Virus record (IMG/VR): IMGVR_UViG_3300041955_000531
From: a virus
Reading direction: 5' to 3' (one strand)
DNA length: 64,000 nucleotides
Shown: positions 15,501 to 32,040 of the stretch, piece by piece
Position numbering within the stretch: the stretch's first letter is position 1
Layout of the letters: every line of letters starts with the position of its first letter
The notes under the pieces: model-generated
Databases searched by the model: none
What the model was told of the DNA's origin: nothing
Seen by the model: only the letters and a program-made list of their open reading frames with translations
Program-made: the position numbers and the translations under genes

Positions 15501-15705
15501 AAGATCAAAAGTTCGGGATAGCAGGCTTGAAGATCTTCTTCGATCTTGTTAGCCTGTAGAACAACCCGCTGATAGACATCTGGCCGTAGTCTACTCCGTA
15601 TGCATACTGCAGACTACAGAAGGATACCCGATGATACGGGTGCGCTCCTTGTTTGTACATCGATGTACATACTTCCAGAATGCCATCATAATCATTATAA
15701 CACAG

Positions 15706-16479: not shown

Positions 16480-16490
16480 ATTGTCTCCTA

Positions 16491-18205: not shown

Positions 18206-18225
18206 TTAGGCCGTCTTCCAGAATG

Positions 18226-18654
18226 TTATTTCGATAAACTCAGTGCCTTCAACAGTACTGCAACACGGGCTAATGCTCTTTCGAGATCGCCCGAAGCTGC
18301 CTGAGGACCGTGCTGAGGTTGAAAGCCATTCAGCCACAGGTCCATCAGCTTGCCCCATAACTTACCAGCTACCTTCGCGCGCCAGGCATGAGTAGACATC
18401 GTCTCATCCTGCGCTCCCCATAAGACTACCACGTTCAGGAAGATATCCAAAGCTACCAGCGCTCTGTGCCAGTATGGTTCTGCTGCTGCCTTGGCTTCTG
18501 CCAGAGGTACATCATCAGGATAGACAAACGGCTTGGCGCCCTTATCTATCCAGTGTCTAACGGATCCTATTGCTACTGAAAGGAATACAAGTCCTGCTAC
18601 AGCGCTGCCGAATATCTCGCCGCCCAGTAGGAACTTGTGCAACAGATCCATCAT
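18226..18654 (-). CDS. Membrane protein
   Basis: Two hydrophobic segments; DETMS motif. Confidence 0.7.
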   Translation of the reverse strand: MMDLLHKFLLGGEIFGSAVAGLVFLSVAIGSVRHWIDKGAKPFVYPDDVPLAEAKAAAEPYWHRALVALDIFLNVVVLWGAQDETMSTHAWRAKVAGKLWGKLMDLWLNGFQPQHGPQAASGDLERALARVAVLLKALSLSK

Positions 18655-18669
18655 TGTGTTTCTCCAAAA

Positions 18670-18748
18670 TGGTCGGAGAGGAGAGATTTGAACTCTCGAT
18701 CTCGTGCGCCCAAGGCACGCGCCTTAAACCGGACTAGGCCACTCTCCG
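18670..18748 (-). tRNA. tRNA-Pro(TGG)
   Basis: Cloverleaf; loop CT TGG GC; encoded CCA. Confidence 0.9.
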
Positions 18749-18749
18749 T

Positions 18750-18823
18750 TGGTACCCGAGCAGAGACTTGAACTCTGTTCTCCAGCTTGAAGGGCTGGTG
18801 TCTTACCCATATACGACTTGGGC
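18750..18823 (-). tRNA. tRNA-Glu(TTC), C33 variant
   Basis: CCAGC-CCTTCAA-GCTGG; CCA. Confidence 0.85.
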
Positions 18824-18825
18824 AC

Positions 18826-18984
18826 TTAAGACTTTGTTGTACCTGGCAGGATGTTCTTGATCCATGCTAGGATACTATCAACGCGCGCGATGAAGTTAGG
18901 ATAGTGCTGCTGGAACTTCATGCCGCCAAAGAAAACAAGAAGGGTAAGAATCCCTTCCACTACAACCTTGAGAAGTGTGAACAT
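18826..18984 (-). CDS. Small membrane protein
   Basis: MFTLLKVVVEGILTLLVFF after RBS GGAG. Confidence 0.6.
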   Translation of the reverse strand: MFTLLKVVVEGILTLLVFFGGMKFQQHYPNFIARVDSILAWIKNILPGTTKS

Positions 18985-19070
18985 AACGTCTCCTAAACTC
19001 TGGCTACGCTTCGGCTCGAGGCGCCCACGTAGCCATGCGATGTGTCCTCGCTTAGACACATCTAAACTGT

Positions 19071-19145
19071 TGGTAGTCTCGGCGAGATTCGAACTCGCGT
19101 GACCAGCTTGAGAAGCTGGCATCCTCGCCACTAGATGACGTGACC
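19071..19145 (-). tRNA. tRNA-Glu(CTC)
   Basis: CCAGC-TTCTCAA-GCTGG; CCA. Confidence 0.9.
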
Positions 19146-19154
19146 ACCGAAAAC

Positions 19155-19190
19155 TGGCGGGACCAACGGGATTTGAACCCGTGATCCTGC
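19155..19190 (-). pseudogene. Orphan 3' half of a tRNA-Asp-like gene
   Basis: GCAGG-ATC-ACGGG TTCAAAT CCCGT-TGGTCCC-GCCA; no 5' half adjacent. Confidence 0.75.
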
Positions 19191-19197
19191 TAAATCT

Positions 19198-19272
19198 TGG
19201 CGGAACCAGCGGGAATCGAACCCGCATCCCACCCGTGACAGGGGTGCGTCATAGCCATTAGACCATGGCTCC
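19198..19272 (-). tRNA. tRNA-Asp(GTC)
   Basis: CACCC-CTGTCAC-GGGTG; CCA. Confidence 0.92.
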
Positions 19273-19593
19273 GTGATGTTTCATTCGGTGATGGTTAGCA
19301 CACAGGATGTCACACTTAGCTATTTCTTCCTGGATGCGTTTCAACGACCATCCCTTACGATTAAAGGAGCCGATCTCGAAAGACTTCTGCGCAGGATTTC
19401 TGTGATGGAAATCCAAGGCACTTGGGTGTTCTTTGAAACCACATACCTTGCAGCCTCTCTCGAGTTTATAGTCTTCGATCCACTTCTTGTTCCGAGCTAT
19501 CCGTAGCTTATCACACTTGCGGACGGCTTTCAAATGCTTCTTGCGATTCGCTGGATTACTATACCACTTCTTCCAAGCTTCTTGATTACTCAT
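19258..19593 (-). CDS. HNH endonuclease
   Basis: CKVCG...LDFHH...CDILCANHHR; 3' end overlaps tRNA-Asp. Confidence 0.9.
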   Translation of the reverse strand: MSNQEAWKKWYSNPANRKKHLKAVRKCDKLRIARNKKWIEDYKLERGCKVCGFKEHPSALDFHHRNPAQKSFEIGSFNRKGWSLKRIQEEIAKCDILCANHHRMKHHGAMV

Positions 19594-19612
19594 TGCTGCT
19601 CCTCGGATAGAG

Positions 19613-20005
19613 GAGTCAGCCTATCAACATCCCGCCATCGGCTAACCGCCGCGGTTTACCATCACGATTGCTTTGTCAAGGCAACCGATAAATACGAGGA
19701 TCTAACTGCAACACTCAAAGGCGACGCCAGCTCTCCCCCGTAATATGAGGGGGCACCAGCTTATGCAGTGGTGTCTGCAGCTCCTGCAGATCCAAGATGG
19801 GCGCGAGCAAGCCCGAAGCCTGACACTGTTCGGCTTTGGCCTCGGTAAGAGCGAGCAAAACAGTAAAAGGAACGCTCACTTACCCGCAAAGAACAACTGA
19901 CCTGAGTGATAAGTCTCACTCTATCCCGCGAGCGCTTTCCCAAACATCGGGCCGATGTAACGTCGCTTGCCGCTTTCCAAAGCGGCCAGGATAGAAGGAC
20001 TACTC
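19613..20005 (-). ncRNA. Candidate ~390-nt structured RNA
   Basis: Ends pair (GAGT..CTATC / GATAG..ACTC); several hairpins; no convincing ORF. Confidence 0.5.
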
Positions 20006-20171
20006 ACTTACTACAGGTCAAACTCTTCAATCTTTCAATCTCGTTTGCTGCTTCTTCCAGAAGATCGGCGATACGATCAGGCTTGCCTTCCTGTACGCTC
20101 TTGCGTGTAGTTATCTGCCTTCGTATCTCGGCGCGCTTGCGCAGCCTGCTAATCAGATCTTCCGTACTCAT
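20004..20171 (-). CDS. Small hypothetical protein (55 aa)
   Basis: MSTEDLISRLRKRAEIRRQITTRKSVQEGKPDRIADLLEEAANEIE...; below the ORF-track cutoff. Confidence 0.65.
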   Translation of the reverse strand: MSTEDLISRLRKRAEIRRQITTRKSVQEGKPDRIADLLEEAANEIERLKSLTCSK

Positions 20172-20176
20172 AAACT

Positions 20177-20250
20177 TGGTCCCTTGGGATGGGCTCGAAC
20201 CATCATCTCCTGATCTTCAGTCAGGGGTCCTACCATTGAACGACCGCGGG
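20177..20250 (-). tRNA. tRNA-Phe(GAA), atypical
   Basis: CCTGA-CTGAAGA-TCAGG; two acceptor-stem mismatches; G37. Confidence 0.7.
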
Positions 20251-20252
20251 TT

Positions 20253-20341
20253 TGGAGGAAGGCCAGAGAATCGAACTCTGTCTCGCCTTTCGACGAGTCT
20301 CGGTTTTCGGGACCGTTGCCGACCATTCAGCGCTGCCCTCC
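20253..20341 (-). tRNA. tRNA-Ser(CGA), C33 variant
   Basis: CGGT-CCCGAAA-ACCG; long variable arm; CCA. Confidence 0.8.
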
Positions 20342-20347
20342 TAAACT

Positions 20348-20437
20348 TGGCGGAGGGTGTAGGATTTGAACCTACGCTGGCTTTCACCAGGCCTCAGGTT
20401 AGCAACCTGGCGCCTTTCCAAACTCAGCCAACCCTCC
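20348..20437 (-). tRNA. tRNA-Ser(GCT)
   Basis: Loop TT GCT AA; long variable arm; CCA. Confidence 0.92.
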
Positions 20438-20506
20438 GAATACACGGGTAGATCGTGATGAGTTTCTACTACTCGAGTTGGCTGTTGCGTTCATCATACT
20501 AATCCT

Positions 20507-20584
20507 TGGCAGGCCAGGATGGATTTGAACCACCGTCATCGGTTTTGGAGACCGAGGTCCTGGGCCAGACTAAACGACCGGCCT
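20507..20584 (-). tRNA. tRNA-Trp(CCA)
   Basis: TCGGT-CTCCAAA-ACCGA; CCA. Confidence 0.92.
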
Positions 20585-20588
20585 GCGA

Positions 20589-20801
20589 TTAAACTATACC
20601 ACCGAATGGCGGCTGGCCAGCATCCACCAGCTTCTGTTCGAGAACCCTGATAGCGCATACGAGAGTCTTGATCAGATTCTCGTTATCGGTATCCTTGAAG
20701 GGTATGTCCAACAGTACTTCGCCACCAACTACACCGACAAAAGCTCTCTTCTGCTTTGTGTCGGGGTCTACTATTTCAGTTACGTATGATTCGATGATCA
20801 T
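20589..20801 (-). CDS. Hypothetical protein
   Basis: 70-aa ORF with RBS AAGGA. Confidence 0.6.
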   Translation of the reverse strand: MIIESYVTEIVDPDTKQKRAFVGVVGGEVLLDIPFKDTDNENLIKTLVCAIRVLEQKLVDAGQPPFGGIV

Positions 20802-20811
20802 TGTCAGTCCT

Positions 20812-20853
20812 TGGTGGAGCAGATGGGAATCGAACCCTCTCTCAAAACCTTAT
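20812..20853 (-). pseudogene. 3' half of a split tRNA-Ala
   Basis: GGG TTCGATT CCC AT-CTGCTCC-ACCA; acceptor strand complements GGGGCAG at 21493-21499. Confidence 0.85.
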
Positions 20854-20886
20854 AGCTCCTATACTATTCAAATATAGAGGAGCTTT

Positions 20887-20962
20887 TGGTGGAGCATGCG
20901 AGATTTGAACTCGCCGCCTCCGCATTGCAAGTGCGGCGCTCTCCCAAATGAGCTAATGCCCC
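20887..20962 (-). tRNA. tRNA-Ala(TGC), intact replacement copy
   Basis: G3:U70; CCGCA-CTTGCAA-TGCGG; CCA. Confidence 0.95.
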
Positions 20963-20963
20963 A

Positions 20964-21455
20964 ATGAAAACTATAACACGAACCTGCTTAAATCCAAAAT
21001 GCAAGAAACAGTTTGAAGCTGAACTCCGAGAAGTACATCGCGGTAATGGTAAATATTGCTGTTTACAATGCTGCCTTAATCACATAAGACCAGTAGGTCG
21101 CACTTTACATACACTAACTTGTTCCTACTGCTTCAAAGAGTTTAAAGATGATCGACCCCTTGTGCCAGGTTTGCCTGATATTGTAGTGCCAGATATACTG
21201 CCTCGTCGATACTGTAGTCGGCAATGTAAGGATCTGAATCATAGAAATGATTGTCATGATGCTCGAACACTGGCGTTTCGCAACTTTCCACATAAATGCA
21301 ATCGCTGTAACTGGGATACAGAACCAGCGGTTCTGGAAGTTCATCACAAAGACCGCAACAGAGAAAACAATGAGCTATCTAATCTTGAACTACTTTGCCC
21401 AACTGATCATTGTTTAGATCACTTTCTTGCAAAAGATGGCAAGTGGCGCAAGTAA
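20964..21455 (+). CDS. HNH endonuclease with N-terminal zinc-binding repeats
   Basis: CxxC/YCSxxC repeats; CNRC...LEVHHKDRNRENNELSNLELLCPTDH. Confidence 0.9.
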   Translation: MKTITRTCLNPKCKKQFEAELREVHRGNGKYCCLQCCLNHIRPVGRTLHTLTCSYCFKEFKDDRPLVPGLPDIVVPDILPRRYCSRQCKDLNHRNDCHDARTLAFRNFPHKCNRCNWDTEPAVLEVHHKDRNRENNELSNLELLCPTDHCLDHFLAKDGKWRK

Positions 21456-21499
21456 CTTATGCTTGCAAAGCATCTGCGCTCCCGTTGCGCCACTGCCCC
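21456..21499 (-). pseudogene. 5' half of a split tRNA-Ala(TGC)
   Basis: GGGGCAG TG GCGC AACGGGA GCGC A GATGC TTTGCAA GCATA AG, then breaks off. Confidence 0.85.
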
Positions 21500-21510
21500 A
21501 CGGAAAATCT

Positions 21511-21621
21511 AATCCTAGATTGACAGCCGGACCAGCGGCGATAAGGTATGTCCGGATTGTGCGCGGCTTTTCTGGTTAGTATCCTGCGTCTAACCATCCT
21601 ATTGACCGCCAATCTAGGGTT
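21511..21621 (-). ncRNA. Candidate ~110-nt structured RNA
   Basis: 15-bp closing stem with G:U pairs on the - strand enclosing internal hairpins. Confidence 0.5.
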
Positions 21622-21652
21622 GATGACCAACTCAACTTGAGTTTGTCAAACT

Positions 21653-21730
21653 TGGTCGGGGAGGGAGGATTCGAACCTCCGTTCTCCTGAATCCGAATCA
21701 GGCGCCTTGGACCAGCTAGACCACTCCCCG
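21653..21730 (-). tRNA. tRNA-Pro(CGG)
   Basis: CCTGA-TTCGGAT-TCAGG; CCA. Confidence 0.92.
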
Positions 21731-21780
21731 ATACTAAACCTTTACGGTCGTTCGGGTCGTGGCTCTAGTCCGCGCGTCAT

Positions 21781-22134
21781 TTAGAAACTCATTCCTAGTA
21801 TCTTGCGATTACGGATCACCATAGCGGTTTCTCCGATCGCTACTGCTCCCCAAAAGATGTATGCGGCCGGCATGCTGTAGTAAGCAAAAGCCCCGCCTGC
21901 AAAAGTAACAAAGGCGCCTTCAAGGAAACAAGTCAAAGCTTGTCCTATCTTGCCGAAGAGCCAGCGATTCCAAGGACTCATTTCTTTATCGCCCTTGGAA
22001 AGGCCAATACCAGTATACCAGCAATCACCGAGCATGGCAACTATAGTATACACGTACACCAGGAACAGCCCTAGAGAATCCCAGAAGCCTGGCTGATTAG
22101 GCCACAAACGCGGATCATCGGGTAGTTGAAACAT
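21781..22134 (-). CDS. Membrane protein (DUF5658-like)
   Basis: TM segments with D.wyT..gL.KG.kE.sP pattern. Confidence 0.6.
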   Translation of the reverse strand: MFQLPDDPRLWPNQPGFWDSLGLFLVYVYTIVAMLGDCWYTGIGLSKGDKEMSPWNRWLFGKIGQALTCFLEGAFVTFAGGAFAYYSMPAAYIFWGAVAIGETAMVIRNRKILGMSF

Positions 22135-22155
22135 TGTTTCTCCTTCTATAAACTC

Positions 22156-22245
22156 TGGTGGAGACGATAGGATTTGAACCTATTCTAGTCCCATTGGGAC
22201 CTGGGGTTACGGCCCAGTGCAGATCCCCGTCTCTGCTGCGCCTCC
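22156..22245 (-). tRNA. tRNA-Tyr(GTA), C33 variant
   Basis: CTGGG-CCGTAAC-CCCAG; long variable arm; CCA. Confidence 0.85.
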
Positions 22246-22313
22246 ATGGAAGCGCACCTCTCCGTGCGCTCATTAAGCGCTACGATAACCGACTCCGCTG
22301 CTCTGTCCACCTT

Positions 22314-22631
22314 TCATGGTACATTCCTATAGTTGTTCACTGTGCAGTAGACGTGATAAGCTGCCTGGCACAAATACCCAACTCCAAATCCGTATCCTGC
22401 AGGTGTCCAGTAATGCGCTGCAATACCTGCTACAAGAACCTCGAGTGCTACGGCAATGCTGCTACGAACCCACATCCTCTTCACTGAAGGATCATCGGTG
22501 CCGTAGATCCAGATCATGATTCGATCTGCTTCAGTGTAACCTTTCCTCAGAAAGCGAGCTGTGCTGACTCCATCCGCTGTTGCAGCTGGGATCAGAATAC
22601 CCACTGCGATCTTGAGAAGCGTTGGTATCAT
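22314..22631 (-). CDS. Membrane protein (DUF5658-like), probable paralog of 21781
   Basis: D..ST..FL.KG..E pattern plus TM segments. Confidence 0.6.
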   Translation of the reverse strand: MIPTLLKIAVGILIPAATADGVSTARFLRKGYTEADRIMIWIYGTDDPSVKRMWVRSSIAVALEVLVAGIAAHYWTPAGYGFGVGYLCQAAYHVYCTVNNYRNVP

Positions 22632-22858
22632 TGCGCTGTCTTTCTCCTGTATTGACGAACCTTTTCGAAAACCCAGTTGACCGTTGAGTACGCGTGCTCA
22701 TCTTCTAACTTGTGATCCTCGATTAGGTGCACAGTCATTCGGTTGCACATGCCGCGAATAACACAGTGTTTGCAGAGTTCACAATCACGAAGCATCGGGA
22801 TGTCCGGATCGAACTGGGGTTTCTCTTTGAACCAACACAACAAAAATCCGAATGTCAT
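22628..22858 (-). CDS. Hypothetical zinc-finger-like protein
   Basis: CELC...H...H pattern. Confidence 0.5.
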   Translation of the reverse strand: MTFGFLLCWFKEKPQFDPDIPMLRDCELCKHCVIRGMCNRMTVHLIEDHKLEDEHAYSTVNWVFEKVRQYRRKTAQ

Positions 22859-22877
22859 CGTGCTCTCGCTATAAACT

Positions 22878-22962
22878 TGGTGTACCTGAGAGGATTCGAA
22901 CCTCCACGCCTTGCGGCACGCGGCTCTCAACCGCGGCTGGCTACCAGTTTCAGCACAGGTAC
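22878..22962 (-). tRNA. tRNA-Leu(GAG)
   Basis: CGCGG-TTGAGAG-CCGCG; long variable arm; CCA. Confidence 0.92.
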
Positions 22963-22963
22963 T

Positions 22964-23052
22964 TGGTGCTGAAGGAGAGATTCGAACTCTCACGGCTTTC
23001 TAGGGCCACAGGGGCTTGAGCCCTGCGCGGCTGCCAGTTACGCCACTCCAGC
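22964..23052 (-). tRNA. tRNA-Leu(CAA)
   Basis: CAGGG-CTCAAGC-CCCTG; long variable arm; CCA. Confidence 0.92.
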
Positions 23053-23065
23053 ACATCTATAAACT

Positions 23066-23144
23066 TGGTGCGCTGGGTGGGATTCGAACCCACAAAATCT
23101 CCTCGGTCTGAACGAGGCGGCTTTGCCATTTTGTCCACCAGCGC
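23066..23144 (-). tRNA. tRNA-Leu(CAG), short variable arm
   Basis: CCTCG-TTCAGAC-CGAGG; CCA. Confidence 0.85.
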
Positions 23145-23234
23145 CTTGAACTACAAGGTCCGGGGACGGCAGTCCGCGGGCCTGCTAACTAAGCAGGCCT
23201 AGCAATCGAATACATCCGCCCATTGTATCGTTCA

Positions 23235-23639
23235 TCATGATTCCATTGTATCACACTGCCAGGCGTTCAGGCCATGGAACAGTGACTTACCTTTCTTCCT
23301 CGAACAAAAGACTGCAACCGCGGTTAAGAGGGCTTCTTCTGTCTGATAGTACCCGGGGTTGGTATCGCGAAACTCTTCCCACGGTAGACGCGCGTGTGAG
23401 ATTTGATGACGGACTTTCTCCAGCTCGTTGCTGTCAACGACTTTGAGGATGATGGTTGTGTGCTCTTCATCAGGGTCCAGTTTAAGTCTCAACTTCAGTT
23501 TCGATACTACATGACATGCCTGGGCTATACAACGGCCGCAAGACATCGGAATAATCTCCCTCAGGAACATCGTAGGTGATATTACGAATGAAGGGAGAAT
23601 AACGTAAATCCTTTTTTCAACTACGGTGCCTGGGGCCAA
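23235..23639 (-). CDS. Peptidyl-tRNA hydrolase (Pth2-like)
   Basis: MSCGRCIAQACH, TIILKV and RDTNP...TAVA match the Pth2 pattern. Confidence 0.75.
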   Translation of the reverse strand: MAPGTVVEKRIYVILPSFVISPTMFLREIIPMSCGRCIAQACHVVSKLKLRLKLDPDEEHTTIILKVVDSNELEKVRHQISHARLPWEEFRDTNPGYYQTEEALLTAVAVFCSRKKGKSLFHGLNAWQCDTMES

Positions 23640-23997
23640 GGACTCTACCTCTCAAAGCCATTCCAATCTTGGCTTTGTGTTCCTCAGACATAGGACCGCG
23701 TTTTGTTCCTGTCTGAGAACCACGGATCTTCGCTGCAATCGCTGGACTACCAGCTGTACGAATAGCATGACAGTTAGCGCAAACTAAATCGCACTTATCA
23801 GCCTCTCGTTTCAGTTCTTCAAGAGATCGATGTAATCCCGAGCTAATAGAAAAGAGTTTAGTACTCGGGTCACGATGATCAAAATGAAAGCAACAGTCAG
23901 GAAAGATATGATTGCAATCAAGACACTTGCCACCTTTGTAGAGAACAAGCTGATGTTTCTTCTCTTGGCGTTTACTCTTTAATCCTAACCATGTCAT
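23617..23997 (-). CDS. HNH endonuclease with NUMOD3-like tail
   Basis: CLDC...FDHRDP...CDLVCANCH; SEEHKAKIG. Confidence 0.9.
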   Translation of the reverse strand: MTWLGLKSKRQEKKHQLVLYKGGKCLDCNHIFPDCCFHFDHRDPSTKLFSISSGLHRSLEELKREADKCDLVCANCHAIRTAGSPAIAAKIRGSQTGTKRGPMSEEHKAKIGMALRGRVLGPRHRS

Positions 23998-24028
23998 TGC
24001 GCTTCTCTACTTTGGGCGTCTCTTTCAT
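23972..24028 (-). pseudogene. Probable orphan N-terminal stub of the pth-like gene
   Basis: MKETPKVEKR versus the Pth N-terminus MAPGTVVEKRIYV. Confidence 0.5.
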
Positions 24029-24034
24029 AAGCTT

Positions 24035-24110
24035 TGGCTGGAGCGGAAGGAATCGAACCTTCAAGTGGATGAGTAACAGTCATCTGCTGTACCGGTTGAG
24101 CCACACTCCA
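24035..24110 (-). tRNA. tRNA-Asn(GTT)
   Basis: GATGA-CTGTTAC-TCATC; CCA. Confidence 0.9.
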
Positions 24111-24600
24111 GTAGAATCTTTTAGTTGTAGGGAGCTAGCTCGCCAGGACGGCAAGCCGAAGAGGAGGGTTACTTACTCTTTGGTTGCGGTAATGGCTTCT
24201 GCGGCTTATACATATTGACTGTCGCCGCTGCTAGTCGTGTGGCCCCATGGTTGAACCATGAGGCCTTCCGAACTTTCTTCTTGCCGGCCATTACCGTTTC
24301 CGGTTAGGCTGACTTGACGCCCGAGTTTGCCACCTTCGGCTGAGTCGGCTTGATAGCCTTTGCCTTGTGTGTGGTCGGGGACGCGAAGATCGGGTCGCCT
24401 ATATACGGGGTCTTGCTAAGTTGTGCTGGGGGTGTCTTAGACCCGTTACTATTCTTCATGTTGTTCTCCATTATTCTGTTTTTGCTTCTGTCGCCAGCCA
24501 CAATAGGGACAGACGAACTCGTCTTTCGGTTCCTTCTTTGAGGCTTGCTTATTGCATACAGGACACTTCATAGTACACATAGCATACCTCTTGGATATCA

Positions 24601-24730
24601 ATAGCGCACGGCTTACATGACAACCGCGCTGGCCTTCCGGTGGGCCAACTTCCAAATCGTCCAGCGTCCCGAACGATTCAGCACCTGCCCTCGGTGTACA
24701 GAGGGGCTACCTTGTCACTTTTCGCGCTAC
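24601..24730 (-). ncRNA. Candidate ~130-nt multibranch RNA
   Basis: Nested closing stems plus three hairpins, with G:U pairs favouring the - strand. Confidence 0.5.
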
Positions 24731-24737
24731 CAATCTT

Positions 24738-24849
24738 TGGAGCTCCAGGTGGGTTTTTCACCATACCGATTTTCACCGGCAACAGGAGTTTAGCCTGCCA
24801 CGACCCCCGGATTAGAAGTCCGGTGCTCTAATAACTGAGCTACTGAAGC
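24738..24849 (-). tRNA. tRNA-Arg(TCT)-like RNA with T loop replaced by a structured insert
   Basis: Acceptor, D and anticodon arms and CCA intact; about 45 nt with two hairpins inside GTGG/CCAC. Confidence 0.75.
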
Positions 24850-24868
24850 TAGAAGCCTTCTCAATCTC

Positions 24869-24944
24869 TGGAGCGGCTAATCGGATTCGAACCGATACAT
24901 CCTGCTTGGAAGGCAGGCATGCTGGCCGTTAACATCACAGCCGC
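24869..24944 (-). tRNA. tRNA-Gly(TCC)
   Basis: CCTGC-CTTCCAA-GCAGG; U73 CCA. Confidence 0.92.
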
Positions 24945-25085
24945 TGGTCCCGATTATCCCTTAAGAGGACCCACCGTGTACTTTGGTGATTGGTCGGGTC
25001 GAAAACCTTTCTTGAAGAACGGCGCGAAGTAAACAGCGCCCAGTAAAATAGTGCAAGTTATTGCATAAGCTAGCATAAGATCTCG

Positions 25086-25159
25086 TGGAGCGAAATGCCG
25101 GATTCGAACCGGCGCTCGAACCTTGGCAAGGTTCTGTACTACCACTATACGAATCCCGC
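25086..25159 (-). tRNA. tRNA-Gly(GCC)
   Basis: GAACC-TTGCCAA-GGTTC; U73 CCA. Confidence 0.92.
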
Positions 25160-25169
25160 TCATTCCCTA

Positions 25170-25182
25170 CTGATTAGTATAG
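25170..25182 (-). promoter_or_regulatory. Conserved phage promoter motif TATACTAATCAG
   Basis: Exact motif 10 nt upstream of tRNA-Gly(GCC). Confidence 0.7.
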
Positions 25183-25575
25183 TAGTTGCCTACGTATAAC
25201 TAACCAATAGAACCTACAACACTTATCTGATTTCACCAATCTACAGCGTATCTGAAAGCTTCCATCTCTTTCTATGGTGCGCAGCCGGAAAACAGCGCGC
25301 CACCATTTAGAGCAGGTAGGATAGATTGGATCGAACACAACCCATTATACCATACTTAGATCAGCTTGGATGGCCCAAATGCGAATCTCTTGCCACCATT
25401 GGTTCCTTCGCTGATGGCGGGGCGGCTCATGAACTCCCATTGCTTTGTTGTATGGTTCCACGTTCGATTCACTCTGACGCCAAGCATCATCTTGGTGCCG
25501 CCAGCCAAGGTGACACCCTGACCCACTGATGGGCATTGCTTCGGTGCTGGTCTTCCTTGGTTCATTGTGACCTCG

Positions 25576-25660
25576 TGGAGCAGGGTGGAGGACTCGAACC
25601 TCCGTGGATTTTACTCGCCGCATTACAGGTGCGGTGCTGTCGCCACTGAGCCAACCCTGC
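25576..25660 (-). tRNA. tRNA-Thr(TGT), C33 variant with long variable arm
   Basis: CCGCA-CCTGTAA-TGCGG; 14-nt variable region; CCA. Confidence 0.75.
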
Positions 25661-25671
25661 TAGTAATCTTG

Positions 25672-25745
25672 TGGCTGCCTTCGAAGGACTCGAACCTTCA
25701 TATCCAGCTCCAGAGGCTGGCGTCCTACCATTAAACGAGTAGGCA
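25672..25745 (-). tRNA. tRNA-Gln(CTG)
   Basis: CCAGC-CTCTGGA-GCTGG; CCA. Confidence 0.9.
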
Positions 25746-25752
25746 ACGGTAT

Positions 25753-25899
25753 TTAGAAGTTCGGATTGTTGGCTATCTGGTAGGTGATATAAGCATAATA
25801 GCTTGCTACCACCGCTAGGGTAATCAGAGCAAGTGCAAATGCCCGCCATCCGATCTCTGCTATGTGCTTGACTTCTTTGACTTCTCTTTCTACGCTCAT
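25753..25899 (-). CDS. Small membrane protein
   Basis: MSVEREVKEV... with one TM helix; RBS GAGG. Confidence 0.55.
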   Translation of the reverse strand: MSVEREVKEVKHIAEIGWRAFALALITLAVVASYYAYITYQIANNPNF

Positions 25900-25916
25900 G
25901 TATGCCTCTTTAAACC

Positions 25917-25993
25917 TGGCGGGCCTGGAGAGATTCGAACTCTCTAGTTGGCAGGTTAGAACTCTGCTGCTCGTCCAATCGAGCTTCAAGCCC
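25917..25993 (-). tRNA. tRNA-Arg(TCT)
   Basis: GCAGA-GTTCTAA-CCTGC (G32, 31-39 mismatch); A20; CCA. Confidence 0.8.
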
Positions 25994-26001
25994 GCGAAAC
26001 T

Positions 26002-26081
26002 TGGCGCGCTATGAGAGATTCGAACTCCCGACCCCTCGGTCCGTAGCCGAGTGCTCTTGGTTTCCGCTGAGCTAATAGCGC
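26002..26081 (-). tRNA. tRNA-Arg(ACG)
   Basis: CTCGG-CTACGGA-CCGAG; CCA. Confidence 0.92.
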
Positions 26082-26082
26082 T

Positions 26083-26157
26083 TGGTAGGTTCGGCGGGCA
26101 TCGAACCCGCAACTCCCTGCTTAAAGGGCAGGTACTCTACCATTGAGTTACGAACCT
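26083..26157 (-). tRNA. tRNA-Lys(TTT), C33 variant
   Basis: CCTGC-CCTTTAA-GCAGG; CCA. Confidence 0.85.
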
Positions 26158-26160
26158 ACG

Positions 26161-26235
26161 TGGTTGGTAGACCTGGACTCGAACCAGGATCTTGGGGTTC
26201 AAGGCCCCACGTGCTACCATTTGCACCACCTACCA
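26161..26235 (-). tRNA. tRNA-Gln(TTG), C33 variant
   Basis: TGGGG-CCTTGAA-CCCCA; CCA. Confidence 0.85.
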
Positions 26236-26238
26236 GTG

Positions 26239-27135
26239 TTACTGTGGCAGGTTGGTTCGTTGCTGGTTTGTATCAGCTGTCCTACCTGGTTCATCTTTCA
26301 TGCGATCAACCAAAGTGGACCTCGTTTCTGGCTTGCCTTTCGACTTCTTACAAATAGCTTCGTACGCGGCCAGAGCGCGATCACGGATGTCTTCATCCGG
26401 ATGCATGTATCCTACTATCTCGAGCGCTTCTCGAGTGTGGTGCCGGAAGTGAATAGGCAGGTTGCCCCACTCCGACGGATACATTTCGAATCTGGTCTCC
26501 AAGTTCATGAACTCTCTGTCCTTCATGTAGTGCGTATCTTCTTTCACGTTCTTCATTACAACCCAACGCAACCAGTGTGTAATTCTTCGGACTTCATCTT
26601 CTGTGGCGATGTCCGATCCGCGCATGGCGCAGAATAAAGCCGACTGCATCTTGCCTGTCAGCTGTAGAACCCAGTCCTGTATTACCCATTCGCCGCGGGC
26701 AATAGGACTGTCATCTTTCAGGCGCTGGATTATATCCACACGATCTTCTGGCAGAATACTCTCGTGCTCTGTCAGATCATGATAGGCCTTCAATGCTTTT
26801 GCCTGGGTCCACTCGTCAGGGTGGAAGAAGGCTATGATAGCCAATGACTGTTTCAGGTGATCGTAGAAGTGTGTCTTCAGACGATCCCATTGCCAAGCAT
26901 CTTGATCCATAAGCGCTTTGATATCAATGAACTCTGTGTCTCTCATGAAATGAGATCTCGGATTGTTCAGCTTGATGCACTGCTTACGGATCCAACGTAC
27001 GACTCTCTTCACTTCTGGTGAATCATCTGAGTCGGCGCCACGGAAAGAGGCAACAAGCTCGGACTGCATACGTCCGGACATGCCGACCTCTTTGATCCAG
27101 TCCTTTAGATTGCACTCGCCTGGCTCGATGATCAT
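26239..27135 (-). CDS. Hypothetical protein with tandem duplicated ~140-aa domain
   Basis: GRMQSELVASFRGAD..HF.DHL..L.II.F.HPD repeated as GKMQSALFCAMRGSD..HF.HH...L.IV.Y.HPD. Confidence 0.8.
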   Translation of the reverse strand: MIIEPGECNLKDWIKEVGMSGRMQSELVASFRGADSDDSPEVKRVVRWIRKQCIKLNNPRSHFMRDTEFIDIKALMDQDAWQWDRLKTHFYDHLKQSLAIIAFFHPDEWTQAKALKAYHDLTEHESILPEDRVDIIQRLKDDSPIARGEWVIQDWVLQLTGKMQSALFCAMRGSDIATEDEVRRITHWLRWVVMKNVKEDTHYMKDREFMNLETRFEMYPSEWGNLPIHFRHHTREALEIVGYMHPDEDIRDRALAAYEAICKKSKGKPETRSTLVDRMKDEPGRTADTNQQRTNLPQ

Positions 27136-27473
27136 ACAACTCTCTCAAAGTATTCTATCGCGAACTTCTGTCTTTCTTCTTCTAGCTCGCGTAGTCGTTC
27201 TTTCTCACGCACTAGAGCCTGGGCTTCTGCTATCTTTACAGGATCATGAAACTCCAGCCAGGCTCGCATGTAACAGTCACAGTAGGGAGTACCATTGTGA
27301 TACTCATCTCCTCTCACTGGGAGCATACTCCCTTCGTGGAAGCGATTATCACCTATATGTGCCGTCGCGTGTATCTCAAATGCTCGTTCCCAGATGGGCG
27401 CTGTTTCCTTACGCGCCTGCTCTGTTGGCAGAGGATATCCCTCACCGAGCACTTCTTTTGGGGTCTCTAACAT
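27132..27473 (-). CDS. Hypothetical protein
   Basis: 113-aa ORF coupled to the next gene. Confidence 0.6.
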   Translation of the reverse strand: MLETPKEVLGEGYPLPTEQARKETAPIWERAFEIHATAHIGDNRFHEGSMLPVRGDEYHNGTPYCDCYMRAWLEFHDPVKIAEAQALVREKERLRELEEERQKFAIEYFERVV

Positions 27474-27489
27474 CTGCCCTCTTTAAATC

Positions 27490-27567
27490 TGGTACCGCGT
27501 CAAGGATTTGAACCTCGGACTTCCTCTTTGTAAGAGAGGCACTCTGACCGGACTGAGTTAACACGGC
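27490..27567 (-). tRNA. tRNA-Val(TAC)
   Basis: CCTCT-CTTACAA-AGAGG; CCA. Confidence 0.92.
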
Positions 27568-27639
27568 ACATAAATCCAAGGCCGACCCCAGATACGGCCG
27601 CCAATGTTGCACTGGGACAGCTGTCGGCACTAATCTCAT

Positions 27640-27710
27640 TGCAGGGTGCTGGAATCGAACCAGCGTCTCCGGTCTTCATGGCCGGTATTCTTCCACTGCA
27701 CCAACCCTAC
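27640..27710 (-). pseudogene. Degenerate tRNA, identity undetermined
   Basis: Good acceptor and T arms; 9-nt anticodon loop CCATGAAGA; no CCA. Confidence 0.6.
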
Positions 27711-27722
27711 GGCCTGCAGAAC

Positions 27723-27920
27723 TTATTTCACCTTGATTTCGGTGACGGGATAGTTGCTGTATGGAGTCTTCTGTACCGCGGCGAAGACGTCGCCAGTAAG
27801 GCGATCGATTACGTGCTTCACTTCGTCACGCGTCAGATCACGTCTCTTGTTGTTCACTTCGATTGTGATCCTGGTACGGGTGTTTCCATCATCTGCGACT
27901 ACTGTTGCGACTCGTTTCAT
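27723..27920 (-). CDS. Hypothetical protein
   Basis: RBS AAGGAG; 65 aa. Confidence 0.6.
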   Translation of the reverse strand: MKRVATVVADDGNTRTRITIEVNNKRRDLTRDEVKHVIDRLTGDVFAAVQKTPYSNYPVTEIKVK

Positions 27921-27936
27921 GGTCGTCTCCTTAAAC

Positions 27937-28009
27937 TGATTGGGGAATCCGGTCTCGGTCCGGAATCTCCCGGTACTATCCGGGGCTTTCGATCTTAAGC
28001 TATTCCCCA
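27937..28009 (-). ncRNA. tRNA-like RNA with non-canonical loops
   Basis: All four stems pair; 6-nt anticodon loop ATAGTA; T loop ACCGAGA; ends ATCA. Confidence 0.6.
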
Positions 28010-28018
28010 GGCTTACAA

Positions 28019-28450
28019 CTATTTCTCACGTGTGTAATGTTGACATTCTTTACACAAGTGATGTAATCCATTGAACTCACTTCTGTTCTTATTGAACTGT
28101 GAAATAGGAAGCATCTTCTTATGCCTACTACACCAGTTCATTCCTTCTGGCCTTTTGATAAAAGGTATGCCTTTTGGTGAATGAGGTCGATCAGGTTTAT
28201 TACAAGCAACATGTGAAAATGCTATGTTATTCAAATCCCAAAAGAGATCTGAACTAATATGTAACCACGGCTTTTTGTGCTCAATAGAAAAGTCTTCGAT
28301 CTTTTCTATTCGTGATCCACACTTGTAACACAGATCCTCATTCAATCTTTGTGCCATTCGAAAGAGCAAACTCTTTCTAAGTTTGGCCATTGCTGTACCA
28401 AACGGCATTCCCAACTGTGATGCCTTCACAGTGTTTGAAGTATTTGGCAT
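28019..28450 (-). CDS. HNH endonuclease
   Basis: CYKCG...SIEHKKPW...NNIAFSHVACN plus C-terminal zinc ribbon. Confidence 0.85.
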   Translation of the reverse strand: MPNTSNTVKASQLGMPFGTAMAKLRKSLLFRMAQRLNEDLCYKCGSRIEKIEDFSIEHKKPWLHISSDLFWDLNNIAFSHVACNKPDRPHSPKGIPFIKRPEGMNWCSRHKKMLPISQFNKNRSEFNGLHHLCKECQHYTREK

Positions 28451-28471
28451 GGATACCCTCCTGCCTTTTAC

Positions 28472-28557
28472 TTGCGGAGGCTGGATTTGAACCAGCGGTG
28501 CCCTTTCGGTTCCAGTTTATGAGACTGGCGACATCGGCCTGACTAGTCGACCCCGCA
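28472..28557 (-). tRNA. tRNA with CAT anticodon (Met-like), long variable arm, no CCA
   Basis: CCAGT-CTCATAA-ACTGG; fMet-like acceptor TGCGGGG/CTCCGCA. Confidence 0.75.
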
Positions 28558-28572
28558 ACAGAAAATGAAAAT

Positions 28573-28817
28573 GAAATGAACGGCGTGGATTCCCGTCTCC
28601 ACCACGCAATAGCCTTTTCTCAACCGACGGCCACGGGTTCCGTTGAGTACTGCCCGTGTAGAGCAGCCCGCTTTATCCCCGCGCGTTTACTTTCTCCCGC
28701 CTTGACGCCAGCCCTGAATCAACCTCGCTTGACCGTCCCCTACGGGGCGCAGACATCACGAGGGCCCTGCTGACGTTATTATATAGCAAGAGCGTCCTAT
28801 TCCGCCACGTTCATTTC
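28573..28817 (-). ncRNA. tRNA-shaped ~245-nt RNA with giant variable region
   Basis: 10-bp terminal stem GAAATGAACG/CGTTCATTTC; D-like arm GCG-GAATAGGA-CGC; T-like arm GCGTGG/CCACGC. Confidence 0.6.
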
Positions 28818-28928
28818 GGAGGGCTCATGACAGGATGCGATCCTAACTCATATCCCTCGTTGCCGCGTCTAGTTCGCGGCCATTACCCTCCATCGACAGG
28901 CATTGACGCCTGCTGGAGGGGATTACGA

Positions 28929-29150
28929 TTAAAGCTTTGCCTTGATCTTCGAGATCTCGGCGAGAACCCAGGTCTTGGCGATAGCTACATCAGCCAGGCC
29001 CTTGCTCTCGAGAACAGCCAGGTCAGTCTTGAGCTCAGCTAACAGCTTCTCCGGCTCACCGATGCCCAACTTCACACCAGCGTAGAAACCGCCGCAGAAT
29101 ACTGCGAGCTCTGCAACTGCTACTAATACAAAAACTCCTAAAGTAACCAT
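28929..29150 (-). CDS. Small membrane protein
   Basis: RBS GGAGGA; N-terminal TM helix. Confidence 0.6.
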   Translation of the reverse strand: MVTLGVFVLVAVAELAVFCGGFYAGVKLGIGEPEKLLAELKTDLAVLESKGLADVAIAKTWVLAEISKIKAKL

Positions 29151-29166
29151 TTGATCTTGTTCCTCC

Positions 29167-29634
29167 TTAAGGAATGTAAGACTTTGTTCTTGAGGGCTCT
29201 GTGCCCAGGTAAACCTTCCGACCTCTGTAAATAGCCACGGGCCTGATATTAGTATAACACGAACTCTCATTGAACAGCAGCTCTAGGCACTTGCCTGGCG
29301 AGCCATACTGATCCAAAGGAGGCTTACTAGCATCGGCACTGAATAACATACTATCACACTTTGTGCTTAAGTCAAAGAGTATAGTCCGGGCTGCTCTTAT
29401 ACCAGCCTGGGCATCATCACAGGTGCCAAGAACGTCTACAAAGACGTGCCAAGTGTCCACCCAGACTCCGAGATCGGAGGGTGGCGGACAAACATATTGA
29501 TTAGAGGGGAGGTCGAAGTCGACCACTGAGCAGTCTGGCTGTAAGGATAACAGCGGTTGCACAAGCTTAATCAGCTCGTCCTTACTGTGAGCCTTTGGGA
29601 GGCTCCAACCATTGCAGGATGGCTTCAAGGTCAA
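29167..29634 (-). CDS. Hypothetical protein
   Basis: 155-aa ORF. Confidence 0.45.
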   Translation of the reverse strand: MTLKPSCNGWSLPKAHSKDELIKLVQPLLSLQPDCSVVDFDLPSNQYVCPPPSDLGVWVDTWHVFVDVLGTCDDAQAGIRAARTILFDLSTKCDSMLFSADASKPPLDQYGSPGKCLELLFNESSCYTNIRPVAIYRGRKVYLGTEPSRTKSYIP

Positions 29635-29736
29635 TCTCCAGACCTTTGTCGCTCAGCGCGCCCGGGAAGGGCATCCAAGGCCTATTCTACGCTGGGTCTA
29701 GAGAGGACCTTGGGGCCCTCTATCCCCTAAGTCCTA

Positions 29737-30876
29737 TTATAACAGAGATCGTATGTCCGCCAGGGCTTGCTTTACTGCTGCCAACTGGCCGGCCTGATAC
29801 GGTCCTGCTGTATTCAACTGCTGGTACTGTACTGCCAAGATATTCTGTAGCAAGTTCAAGTCGGCCACCGTCAGGGTCCCGTTCTGCATGTGGGCCACCG
29901 CCGTTTGGATCGCTGTTTGTTGAGTAGTTTCAAATGGTGAAGCCACGCCTTTGATCAAACCAAGGAAGAAGTTCGATATGAAAGTGACATCTGCTGCTGC
30001 GACCGAACCTACTTGAATCGTTGCTGTAGTGGTAAGGGTGCCTACTTCATCTGATGCGGCCGTTATCACTGTCAAGCCAGGTGCTACTGCTGTGACCAGT
30101 CCTGTGTGAGCTCCAACAGTTGCAACACCTGTGACCGAAGAAGACCAATCTGTTACGTTGGTCGTGCCGCCGGTGACCACGCCACCAGCAAGCAGTAATG
30201 TCTGTCCAGCTTCATCGATCTGTGCGCTGGATGGGCTGATAGCAGAGATCGCGAGGATCTTGTATACCGCGGAGCCTACAGCACTATCCAAATAAGTAGC
30301 CGTGCTGTCATAAGCAAGGGCTTTCAGAGTAAGACCGTGTGGTACTTGAACTGTAGTCGCAGCCAGTATTTTGAAGGTGCTTGGGCCAGCTACACCACCT
30401 ACTTCAGTAGGAGTGGTGCCATCAACCGAATAAAAGAAATGAGTTGCATTGGCACTGGTAAGAGTTACTGTCTGTGTTCCAGCGTACAGCCCGGCAACAG
30501 GACTAAACGTCGGTGTGGCCAAAGATGATTGTGTCCCAACGAAGTTGCATGCAAGATCAGTAGTTGTCTCTACTATGTTGACTGGGACAAATGTCCAGCC
30601 AGTCTTGGTTGGTGTTACAGTGACGGTGCCTGTGAGGCCGCCGAAACTGAAAGTTCCAGGTGCGCCTGTGGTTGCACTTGTTTGACCTGTGCAAGCAACT
30701 GTGACACCTGAGATCGGGTTGGTACTGCCGTCAACAATGGTTCCGGAAACGGTATAACCCACAGCCAAATCAACGGGACCAGAATACTGGTAAGAGTCCT
30801 CAGATACAGGAAGATAGACAGCAGGATTGTCTGTCATCTGGACGACTTTCTTGGTGATTACCTTCATGTTAGTCAT
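29737..30876 (-). CDS. Ig-like (Big_2) and FN3/chitobiase-type domain protein, probable virion decoration
   Basis: TPTFSPVAGLY...YSVDGTTPT; WSSSVTGVATV...GLVTAVAPG. Confidence 0.8.
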   Translation of the reverse strand: MTNMKVITKKVVQMTDNPAVYLPVSEDSYQYSGPVDLAVGYTVSGTIVDGSTNPISGVTVACTGQTSATTGAPGTFSFGGLTGTVTVTPTKTGWTFVPVNIVETTTDLACNFVGTQSSLATPTFSPVAGLYAGTQTVTLTSANATHFFYSVDGTTPTEVGGVAGPSTFKILAATTVQVPHGLTLKALAYDSTATYLDSAVGSAVYKILAISAISPSSAQIDEAGQTLLLAGGVVTGGTTNVTDWSSSVTGVATVGAHTGLVTAVAPGLTVITAASDEVGTLTTTATIQVGSVAAADVTFISNFFLGLIKGVASPFETTQQTAIQTAVAHMQNGTLTVADLNLLQNILAVQYQQLNTAGPYQAGQLAAVKQALADIRSLL

Positions 30877-30888
30877 CGGGCTATGTCC

Positions 30889-32040
30889 TCAAGAGCTGAT
30901 TAGTATAGCAGGCGCTGGGGTTGGCACAGGGACCTTAAACTTGGACTTCAGGAACTGAAGGATGTCGTTATGGATCCGTTGAACCTGGTTGATTGACATC
31001 TTCATGGTCTCGGAGATCTGCTTCCAGGGCATCTCCTGGACATAGTACAGGTAGATCAGATGTCTTTCTCTATAGGTCATGTTGGCAAATAGAGGATCTG
31101 TTGTGCCTTCTACCCAGGCCGGCGTGATGGCAGACAGGTCTAAACACTTTGTTACCATCGACATGTCAGCCGCCCAGGAATGACCACTACCGTCTGTGAG
31201 ATCACCATCTGCATGGGGAACATCGCCGGTGTAGTCCATATCTTCTCCGCCCGCGGTTCGATGCTCGAGTTGGAGCATCTTCTCCCACGCGCGCGCTTCG
31301 AGAGTCTTCATCTGTTCATCGATATGTTCCTGTAAGTAGTAACGGAACCATGTCTGAACAAAGTATACGAAGCCGATCGGACCTGAAGAAAGGAACTCTT
31401 TGCTTGGTGGCCACTGTTCAGTGGTCTGGTATCCGATTAGCTTCTTGCCGGCGCCGCGGATGGCATGGATGTAGCCCTTCCGCGCGAGCAAACGAACAGA
31501 GCCAGTTGGATCGTACTTCACTCTCTTCTGGATCTGATCAAGTGTAATGTGCTTGTTCTTCTTGAGCTGGCCGATGAGCTTGACGATCTCTTTGATCTTG
31601 TCGACATAGCTGGGATCATACTTCTTGATGCAGCGGAGGAGCAACGTATTCAGGACGTCATAGACGTCCGTTGCTGTGTGCTGTGGGAATGCCAAGTGCA
31701 AATGCTTTGCCACCCGGGCAAAGGCAGACTTGGCTTGCTCTTGTGTATCCAAGGGCTCGCTGGCTGGTAGGAAATACTTGAGGAAGCGACGCGTATCTCC
31801 ATTGAAATAGTGTTGCTGCGGGAGGTGCCCGGCTACAATCAAGTCAGTATACTTATAGACATAACCATGGAAGTACTTAACTAGCTCGAGGAGTTTATCT
31901 TCCTTGTCTTGGCTATCGTGCATCAACGCATAGTCGATGCCCGCCTGGTTGACGATCTGCAGATCGTTGAACTCACTATCTTTAGGTAGCGGCCACTTGG
32001 CTGCATAGTGAGTGTTGTCTAAGGTTACGTTGTTTGACAT
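30889..32040 (-). CDS. Phage RNA polymerase sigma-factor-like protein
   Basis: C-terminal region-4-like HTH (MTYRERHLIYLYYVQEMPWKQISETMKMSINQV); region-2-like IKKYDP..FVYF. Confidence 0.65.
   Translation of the reverse strand: MSNNVTLDNTHYAAKWPLPKDSEFNDLQIVNQAGIDYALMHDSQDKEDKLLELVKYFHGYVYKYTDLIVAGHLPQQHYFNGDTRRFLKYFLPASEPLDTQEQAKSAFARVAKHLHLAFPQHTATDVYDVLNTLLLRCIKKYDPSYVDKIKEIVKLIGQLKKNKHITLDQIQKRVKYDPTGSVRLLARKGYIHAIRGAGKKLIGYQTTEQWPPSKEFLSSGPIGFVYFVQTWFRYYLQEHIDEQMKTLEARAWEKMLQLEHRTAGGEDMDYTGDVPHADGDLTDGSGHSWAADMSMVTKCLDLSAITPAWVEGTTDPLFANMTYRERHLIYLYYVQEMPWKQISETMKMSINQVQRIHNDILQFLKSKFKVPVPTPAPAILISS
30896..30908 (-). promoter_or_regulatory. Conserved phage promoter motif (TGc)TATACTAATCAG
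   Basis: Exact motif 20 nt upstream of the 30876 start. Confidence 0.7.

Follow-up and report, generated by a model that had tools for sequence, protein, structure and literature searches.

What occupies the border between the last translated gene of a phage operon and the tRNA array behind it? The 64,000-nt stretch of uncultured-phage DNA analyzed here (IMG/VR record IMGVR_UViG_3300041955_000531; the window) has 25 tRNA genes and one tmRNA, all on its - strand and within 15150-28558. A structured RNA of ∼350 nt (28573-28920, - strand) lies just ahead of the first tRNA of this array, tRNA-Met(CAT), and behind the stop codon of the gene for a small membrane protein. The original prediction, made from this one sequence, described a giant tRNA-shaped RNA with a 155-nt variable domain and three hairpins upstream. 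We find that the element represents a new family of structured non-coding RNA, that it is expressed and that it is fixed at the border between the translated operon and the tRNA array. Its fold, however, is not that of a tRNA: covariation reassigned half of the proposed cloverleaf, illustrating how tRNA-likeness judged from one sequence can mislead.

No known family accounts for the element. A cmscan of the whole window against Rfam 15 at gathering scores assigned it to no family, and a search of 28400-29050 with all 4227 families at E-values up to 10 returned tRNA-Met alone, in agreement with the novelty that had been proposed. The same search included the covariance models for GOLLD, ROOL, raiA and OLE, none of which matched, and RF00023 gave no match either. 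ARAGORN reported nothing on the element, whether run at default settings, in tmRNA mode (even at an 80% threshold) or allowing introns of 0-300 nt, which upholds the earlier statement that the RNA is not a tmRNA; a normal tmRNA is found elsewhere in the window. ARAGORN calls at thresholds of 70-80% were scattered and mutually inconsistent and were discarded as noise, as was a low-threshold 'tRNA-Pyl(cta)' over the upstream hairpins, where acceptor stems were poor and the calls varied among sequences. Among 50,697 GenBank phages, blastn and tblastn detected no relative of either the RNA or the sigma factor encoded nearby. The models in a 2023 catalogue of viral structured RNAs are 29-151 nt long (PMC10690425).

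Relatives were reached through the neighboring sigma-factor gene in IMG/VR and in JGI metagenomes from peat, wetland and soil. With blastn and nhmmer we recovered four further distinct versions of the RNA (L001, L012, L007 and L015), and all alignments comprise these four and the window, five distinct sequences from a single clade. The L001 version is shared, without a difference, by L002-L006 and L011; one of these copies sits on a 215-kb contig with a completeness rating of 100%. L007 is the same contig as L072. About 30 further relatives, several on 200-kb contigs, are represented by sigma-factor proteins alone (P0001-P0035) and stand outside the alignment. The covariance model R1 finds exactly one copy in each RNA-bearing genome, including the complete 215-kb genome. 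It finds none on the more distant whole contigs G002 and G003, and no distant member among 65 loci or in filters-off runs on L008, L014 and L016. Motif scans of the viral contig collection, exact as well as gapped, returned the four known contigs and none new; scans of prokaryote genome contigs gave 0 and then 11 chance matches, none of which R1 confirmed. The RNA was found solely in one clade of ∼215-kb peat and wetland phages.

Within this clade the gene order is conserved: sigma factor, Ig-like protein, orf155, small membrane protein, RNA, tRNA-Met. The RNA heads the tRNA array, directly 5' of its first tRNA, as the original prediction had it, and a pyrimidine-rich trailer follows the RNA in all relatives; in the window 14 nt separate the element from tRNA-Met. 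Compared with L007 and L015, the core of the RNA is 79% identical (apex of H4 excluded) versus 64-69% for the flanking genes. These two phages carry an ORF for a Cys-rich protein of 205 aa between the RNA and tRNA-Met, which starts 17 nt past the closing stem, has no visible Shine-Dalgarno sequence and matches nothing in Pfam or PHROG. In L014, whose sigma factor is 62% identical, the RNA and tRNA-Met are both missing, and a gene for a ClpB-like AAA+ ATPase (AAA_2 and ClpB_D2-small) directly follows the small membrane-protein gene. The variable arm of tRNA-Met itself is 15 nt long in the window and in the sister phage L001. The window copy has no encoded CCA (it ends ...CCGCAAG) and is followed by an HNH endonuclease gene; the sister copy retains CCA, and the HNH gene is absent there.

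The evidence for a conserved fold comes from the five-sequence alignment of the 245-nt core (28573-28817; alignment A5), in which RNAalifold and manual curation define nine helices (Table 1). The 58 pairs are formed in 95.5% of cells, and 20 of them have changed on both sides, compared with 10.1 ± 1.9 in shuffled alignments (0 of 500 reach 20) and 0-4 when the partners are slid by 1-3 columns. For the three upstream hairpins, which the original prediction had placed correctly, 92.7% of cells are paired and 13 pairs have changed on both sides versus 7.8 in shuffles (0 of 500). Covariation among homologs was among the checks that had been proposed, and it supports a conserved structured non-coding RNA. 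Because single-sequence folding energies are no better than those of shuffled sequences (z = -0.9 and -1.2), the case for structure rests on covariation and not on energy. The 28 G-U cells identify the - strand as the folded one, and a conserved ORF is excluded by the one-base indels found along the core. We regard the conserved fold, its strand, its position and its single copy as demonstrated.

Table 1. Features of the RNA and its surroundings. Positions refer to the window unless a contig is named; strands joined by "with" pair with one another, and "changed" counts pairs changed on both sides.
Feature	Positions	Strand	Sequence or make-up	Remarks
orf155 leader	29635-29745; L001:10287-10390	-	∼110 nt	between Ig-like gene and orf155
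orf155	29167-29634	-		upstream of small membrane-protein gene
Small membrane-protein gene	28929-29150	-		upstream neighbor of RNA
hp1	28886-28920	-	13 bp, 3-nt bulge	100% paired, 4 changed (alignment A6)
hp2	28862-28880	-	6 bp	100% paired, 2 changed
hp3	28819-28858	-	variable in sequence and length	80% paired, 7 changed, two segments
H1, closing stem	28808-28817 with 28573-28582	-	10 bp, GAAATGAACG/CGTTCATTTC	100% paired
Junction J1/2	28793-28807	-	UGGCGGAAUAGGACG	UGGCGGAA invariant within
Long arm	28694-28792	-	H2, H3, H4, two internal loops	
H2	28785-28792 with 28694-28701	-	CUCUUGCU/GGCGGGAG	3 changed
Internal loop H2-H3		-	AUAUAAUA/CAA	
H3	28769-28776 with 28705-28712	-		87.5% paired; U-G to C-A swap
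Internal loop H3-H4	28713-28722 (UUGAUUCAGG)	-	AGGGC/UUGAUUCAGG	
H4, apical hairpin	28723-28763	-	variable	base: 2 changed
Conserved junction	28683-28693	-	AAAGUAAACGC	AAGTAAACGC invariant in 5/5
Pseudoknot domain	28611-28682	-	order a-b-a'-c-b'-c'	
a/a'	28678-28682 with 28633-28637	-	GCGGG/CCCGU	1 changed
H6, hairpin	28649-28667	-		2 changed
b/b'	28642-28647 with 28619-28624	-	CUCAAC/GUUGAG	4 of 6 changed
c/c'	28629-28632 with 28611-28614	-	GGCC/GGCU	1 changed
H8, hairpin	28583-28607	-	GCGUGG/CCACGC, 6 bp, 13-nt loop UGGAGACGGGAAU	100% paired
U-rich trailer	28559-28572	-	AUUUUCAUUUUCUG	separates RNA from tRNA-Met
tRNA-Met(CAT)	28471-28558; L001:11459-11546	-		first tRNA of array; next RNA gene after element in 5/5 genomes
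HNH endonuclease gene	28019-28450		PF01844	follows tRNA-Met in window
205-aa Cys-rich ORF	L015:5176-5793; L007:12428-13045			between RNA and tRNA-Met
ClpB-like ATPase gene	L014:4039-5375			
tmRNA	15150-15500	-		
Motif TATACTAATCA	14132, 25171-25181, 30897-30907, 42423, 54252	-		
Motif TATACTAATCA	5106	+		

The closing stem H1, the 10-bp terminal stem of the original prediction, is kept in all five distinct sequences with one compensatory change, a U-A to C-G replacement in L015. It encloses a long arm, whose apex varies in length by up to ∼40 nt, a conserved junction, and a pseudoknot domain in which b/b' crosses both a/a' and c/c', making the knot an interleaved one. Short linkers connect its strands (GGAA from b to a', GUCG from c to b' and AAAA from b' to c'), and GAUAAAGCGG, between a and hairpin H6, is invariant. 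Helices a/a' and c/c' show one compensatory event each and, like the tertiary contacts, are tentative because the five distinct sequences come from one clade. The last hairpin, H8, is the best-supported helix of the RNA: five of its six pairs have changed on both sides and its 13-nt loop is conserved. H8 abuts the 3' strand of H1 directly, with no linker.

Much of the conservation lies outside the helices. UGGCGGAA, AAUAACG, AAGUAAACGC, GGGGAUAAAGCGGGCU, GGAACCC and AAAAGG are invariant and unpaired, as is GGUUGA-N-UCAGGGC (GGUUGAWUCAGGGC) apart from the position N. UGGCGGAA, AAGUAAACGC, GGGGAUAAAGCGGGCU and GGUUGAWUCAGGGC in particular suggest that the RNA adopts a specific tertiary fold or binds a partner, over and above simple protection. 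The invariant UGGCGGAA of J1/2 could pair with the equally invariant CCGUCG at 28625-28630. The internal loop strand UUGAUUCAGG contains a UGA-N-UCA palindrome whose central base is free, being U in three of the sequences and A in the other two, a pattern that would be expected of a homodimeric loop-loop contact and could reflect one. Three further loop-loop pairings that we considered, CCCGU/ACGGG (with the H8 loop), GAAUC/GAUUC and GACGG/CCGUC, are either invariant or contradicted by variants, and we do not claim them.

The upstream hairpins fill the interval between the message and the core: hp1 starts 9 nt past the stop codon of the gene for the small membrane protein, whereas 1 nt separates the end of hp3 from the closing stem. 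The 7-nt loop of hp2, AACUAGA, is the same in four of the five sequences. At low threshold ARAGORN takes it for the CUA anticodon loop of a 'cloverleaf', but that cloverleaf is a poor one, and contact with a protein or an RNA is a more probable role for the loop than descent from a suppressor tRNA.

How much of the tRNA shape survives this comparison? The 'T-like' stem GCGTGG/CCACGC is H8, a real hairpin, and with the closing stem it is the part of the proposed shape that stands. The anticodon and D arms do not hold in the relatives. The 'anticodon-like stem' CTTGCT/AGCAGG has six of six pairs in the window, but 5, 3, 3 and 2 of six in the other sequences, and its 5' strand forms the covarying helix H2 with GGCGGGAG; the stem is an accident of the window sequence. 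The 'D-like arm' GCG/CGC amounts to 3 bp; they show no covariation, L007 and L015 have a G-A mismatch among them, and the GG resembling that of a D loop occurs in the window only. What had been read as a variable domain of ∼155 nt is the conserved core itself, a three-helix long arm and a three-helix interleaved pseudoknot, rather than an insertion in a tRNA. The sole remaining likeness is the linker-free junction of the last hairpin with the closing stem, as between a T arm and an acceptor stem. Measured against tRNA (RF00005), the closing stem has 10 bp instead of 7 and no discriminator base; the sequence behind it is AUUUUC, confirming the reported absence of CCA, in a phage most of whose true tRNAs encode CCA. 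H8 has a 6-bp stem and a 13-nt loop that does not follow the T-loop consensus, and RF00005 does not match the element at E-values up to 10.

Parts of the region are present in five metatranscriptome runs. In the wetland run X1, a 1240-nt contig with a depth of 228 covers 28585-29823 (-) with zero letters differing from the window, and spans orf155, the small membrane-protein gene, the hairpins and the RNA. Neighboring contigs of the same phage in this run have depths of 2.85-8 (27989-28299 at 4.2; 29858-30091 at 2.85). A uniform carry-over of DNA could not produce a 50-fold step within a single genome, so the deep stretch is highly represented as RNA. At its 3' side the contig stops ∼12 nt before the last nucleotide of H1. 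A strain break there is unlikely because the stop falls in the most conserved part of the element, and the stop fits an RNA end at or just past H1. Contig ends are nevertheless weak hints that could also reflect assembly breaks between strains, and since depth is a single mean per contig it does not resolve the levels of the mRNA and RNA parts or the contig ends. The run thus gives a weak demonstration that the RNA is abundant and that an RNA end lies near the closing stem. Runs X3 and X4 contain next to nothing of the stretch and so provide no evidence of habitat.

No intrinsic terminator was found in 27800-29800. The promoter-like motif TATACTAATCA has 10 matches in the window at no more than one mismatch, compared with 1.4 expected, and probably marks a class of phage promoters, judging from copies that mostly lie on the coding strand ahead of gene blocks. 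None precedes the RNA on the - strand. For a sigma-70-like promoter at ∼29826-29853, only 8 of 12 positions match; its spacing from the start of the contig is poor, it is not conserved in L012, L007 or L015, and we do not claim it. The leader that separates the Ig-like gene from orf155 is almost invariant in all five phages (alignment A7), and this holds for a hairpin, AGAGGGCCCCAAGGUCCUCU, as well as for GAGCGACAAAGGUCUGGAGAUUGACC, extending to the TTG start codon. The gene upstream of the leader has been replaced in L012 and L007. The leader may represent a conserved, structured 5' UTR or the promoter region of the abundant transcript.

The explanation that we favor, at a probability of roughly 0.4, is that the RNA is a nuclease-resistant domain that ends an abundant transcript at the border between the mRNA and the tRNA array. 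Its three hairpins and 245-nt domain, with the terminal hairpin stacked on the 10-bp closing stem, would be transcribed as the tail of the orf155/small-membrane-protein transcript, from no promoter motif of its own and ahead of the untranslated tRNA array. The nucleases that mature the array would cut behind it, with RNase P acting at the tRNA-Met 5' end or an endonuclease acting within the U-rich trailer, and 3'-to-5' exonucleases would then trim back to the closing stem and halt at the blunt 16-bp stack of H1 and H8 and the knotted core. The domain would persist as a stable 3' end that marks the border between message and tRNA array, and the RNA upstream of it would accumulate because exonucleases would have no single-stranded landing site. 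The cutting and trimming steps are those of bacterial RNA decay in general, from which we infer both the nucleases at work and the protective role. Besides the limits of the contig evidence and the small alignment noted above, two observations argue against this reading. In L007 and L015 the RNA is not directly followed by a tRNA, and since the 205-aa ORF begins so close behind it, the RNA is internal to the transcript in these phages. Simple hairpins, moreover, suffice for 3'-end protection, and the pseudoknot and long invariant single strands exceed that need.

This excess of invariant loops and elaborate knot over a protective role, and the fact that such RNAs are known at tRNA islands, make a role in trans the serious rival, although we consider it somewhat unlikely. 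The element would then be a stable 245-350-nt RNA of the GOLLD/ROOL kind, excised with the tRNAs and serving as a self-assembling particle or as a scaffold; in the scaffold variant it would bind a phage or host factor of the tRNA and translation world. Long invariant unpaired segments, a complex pseudoknot and abundance in an environmental RNA library speak for this role, as does a position beside a tRNA island and adjoining a tRNA-Met, as described for GOLLD and ROOL (PMC12286853), and the UGAUUCA/UGAAUCA palindrome could support kissing between homodimer partners. Against it, no 5' end is seen at hp1 or H1: the contig, the sole RNA evidence, runs on for 900 nt upstream into coding sequence. 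Neither the GOLLD nor the ROOL model matches, the size is at most half of theirs, and no partner was found: the complete sister genome G001 encodes no TROVE/Ro60 (positive controls for this search responded), RtcB or CCA-adding enzyme. It is also possible, but unlikely, that the element belongs to a new class of ornate phage tRNA-island RNA that acts independently, either as a self-assembling particle or scaffold with contacts through the palindromic UGAnUCA internal loop and other invariant loops, or as a new ribozyme or sensor in control of the passage from message to array.

The remaining possibilities act in cis or by imitation. Quite unlikely, in our estimation, is control of polymerase read-through into the untranslated tRNA array by a ligand- or factor-responsive switch or by an antiterminator like the put RNAs of phage HK022, which are processive antiterminators. 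In all five genomes the element sits where translation stops and ∼10 kb of mostly untranslated RNA begins, there is a U-rich trailer behind the closing stem, and competing pairings (b/b' crossing a/a' and c/c', J1/2 possibly with CCGUCG) are what a switch would use; since the crossing helices can coexist in a single pseudoknot without steric conflict, they do not demand a switch. The search that found no terminator in 27800-29800 also revealed no terminator/antiterminator pair, no riboswitch family matches, and constitutive antitermination fits poorly with a ∼50-fold fall in RNA depth past the element. A tRNA mimic or decoy, whose closing stem and terminal hairpin would imitate the stack of acceptor stem and T arm and lure a tRNA-binding enzyme or a host anticodon nuclease, could draw on the direct abutment of H8 with H1 and on the resemblance of the window's J1/2 to a class-II D arm. 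We think it very unlikely: the stack has 10 + 6 bp rather than 7 + 5, the tRNA hallmarks examined above are missing or confined to the window, and none of the tRNA and tmRNA detectors gives a hit. Catalysis, by self-cleavage or otherwise, that would separate message from array seems the most improbable, although the pseudoknot is interleaved, junction nucleotides are invariant and an RNA end lies near the 3' border. No ribozyme family matches, the contig end is a weak hint and no cleavage site is marked.

Several known RNAs can be set aside on similar grounds. A bacterial Y RNA (YrlA) is rejected by the absence of TROVE from G001, of a canonical T arm and of an Rfam match. In RNase P RNA the P4 pseudoknot, formed by CR-I with CR-V, lies just inside P1; the helix order a-b-a'-c-b'-c' followed by H8 misfits this P1-P4 layout, and Rfam gives no match. 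A riboswitch with an intrinsic terminator would need an aptamer and a terminator, neither of which was detected (terminator search, 27800-29800), and in the window a tRNA rather than an ORF follows. A group I intron in a tRNA gene is contradicted by the empty ARAGORN searches with introns of 0-300 nt, by the lack of a match to RF00028 and by flanks that form no tRNA. Layouts resembling RNase P RNA, group I introns, HDV and twister ribozymes were also compared by eye, and none fits.

Other systems share individual features with this RNA. The 5' and 3' ends form a terminal helix with the last hairpin stacked on its 3' strand, as in the tRNA/tmRNA domain, whereas G3:U70, CCA and the tag reading frame of tmRNA are all lacking. 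Protective 3' structures include the terminator and REP hairpins of bacteria, and flavivirus exonuclease-resistant pseudoknots block a 5'-to-3' enzyme. By analogy with these, the element may be viewed as a compact fold that ends an abundant RNA, with a sharp drop in RNA level behind it; known bacterial 3' stabilizers are far smaller, and their sequences less conserved. The stable RNAs C and D of phage T4 (species 1 and 2) are non-tRNA species of ∼120-140 nt that are co-transcribed with a tRNA cluster, inside it or at its end, and matured by tRNA-processing nucleases, and their function is unknown. Unlike them, the present RNA is larger, heads its array and has no detectable similarity to either.

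The closest comparison is with GOLLD (RF01998) and ROOL (RF03087), large pseudoknotted RNAs of phages and prophages that often lie at tRNA islands; their function is unknown, neither has a known protein partner, and GOLLD env-38 adjoins a tRNA-Met (PMC12286853). Like them, the RNA described here is pseudoknotted, phage-encoded and located at a tRNA island. It differs in its length, 245-350 nt versus ∼580 and >800 nt, in its lack of any cmscan match to their models and in its confinement to one small phage clade. The formation of homo-oligomeric cages is a further hallmark of GOLLD and ROOL. GOLLD and ROOL are a standing puzzle in that their structures are solved while their function is not understood. 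A third, unrelated and much smaller RNA with a defined pseudoknotted fold and signs of high abundance in environmental RNA now occupies the same niche. Its fixed position at the border between operon and tRNA array leads to testable hypotheses of end protection, read-through control or action in trans, and at 245-350 nt it is tractable for chemical probing, crystallography and cryo-EM. Should it prove to be a new class that acts independently, it would be a small and tractable relative-in-kind of GOLLD and ROOL.
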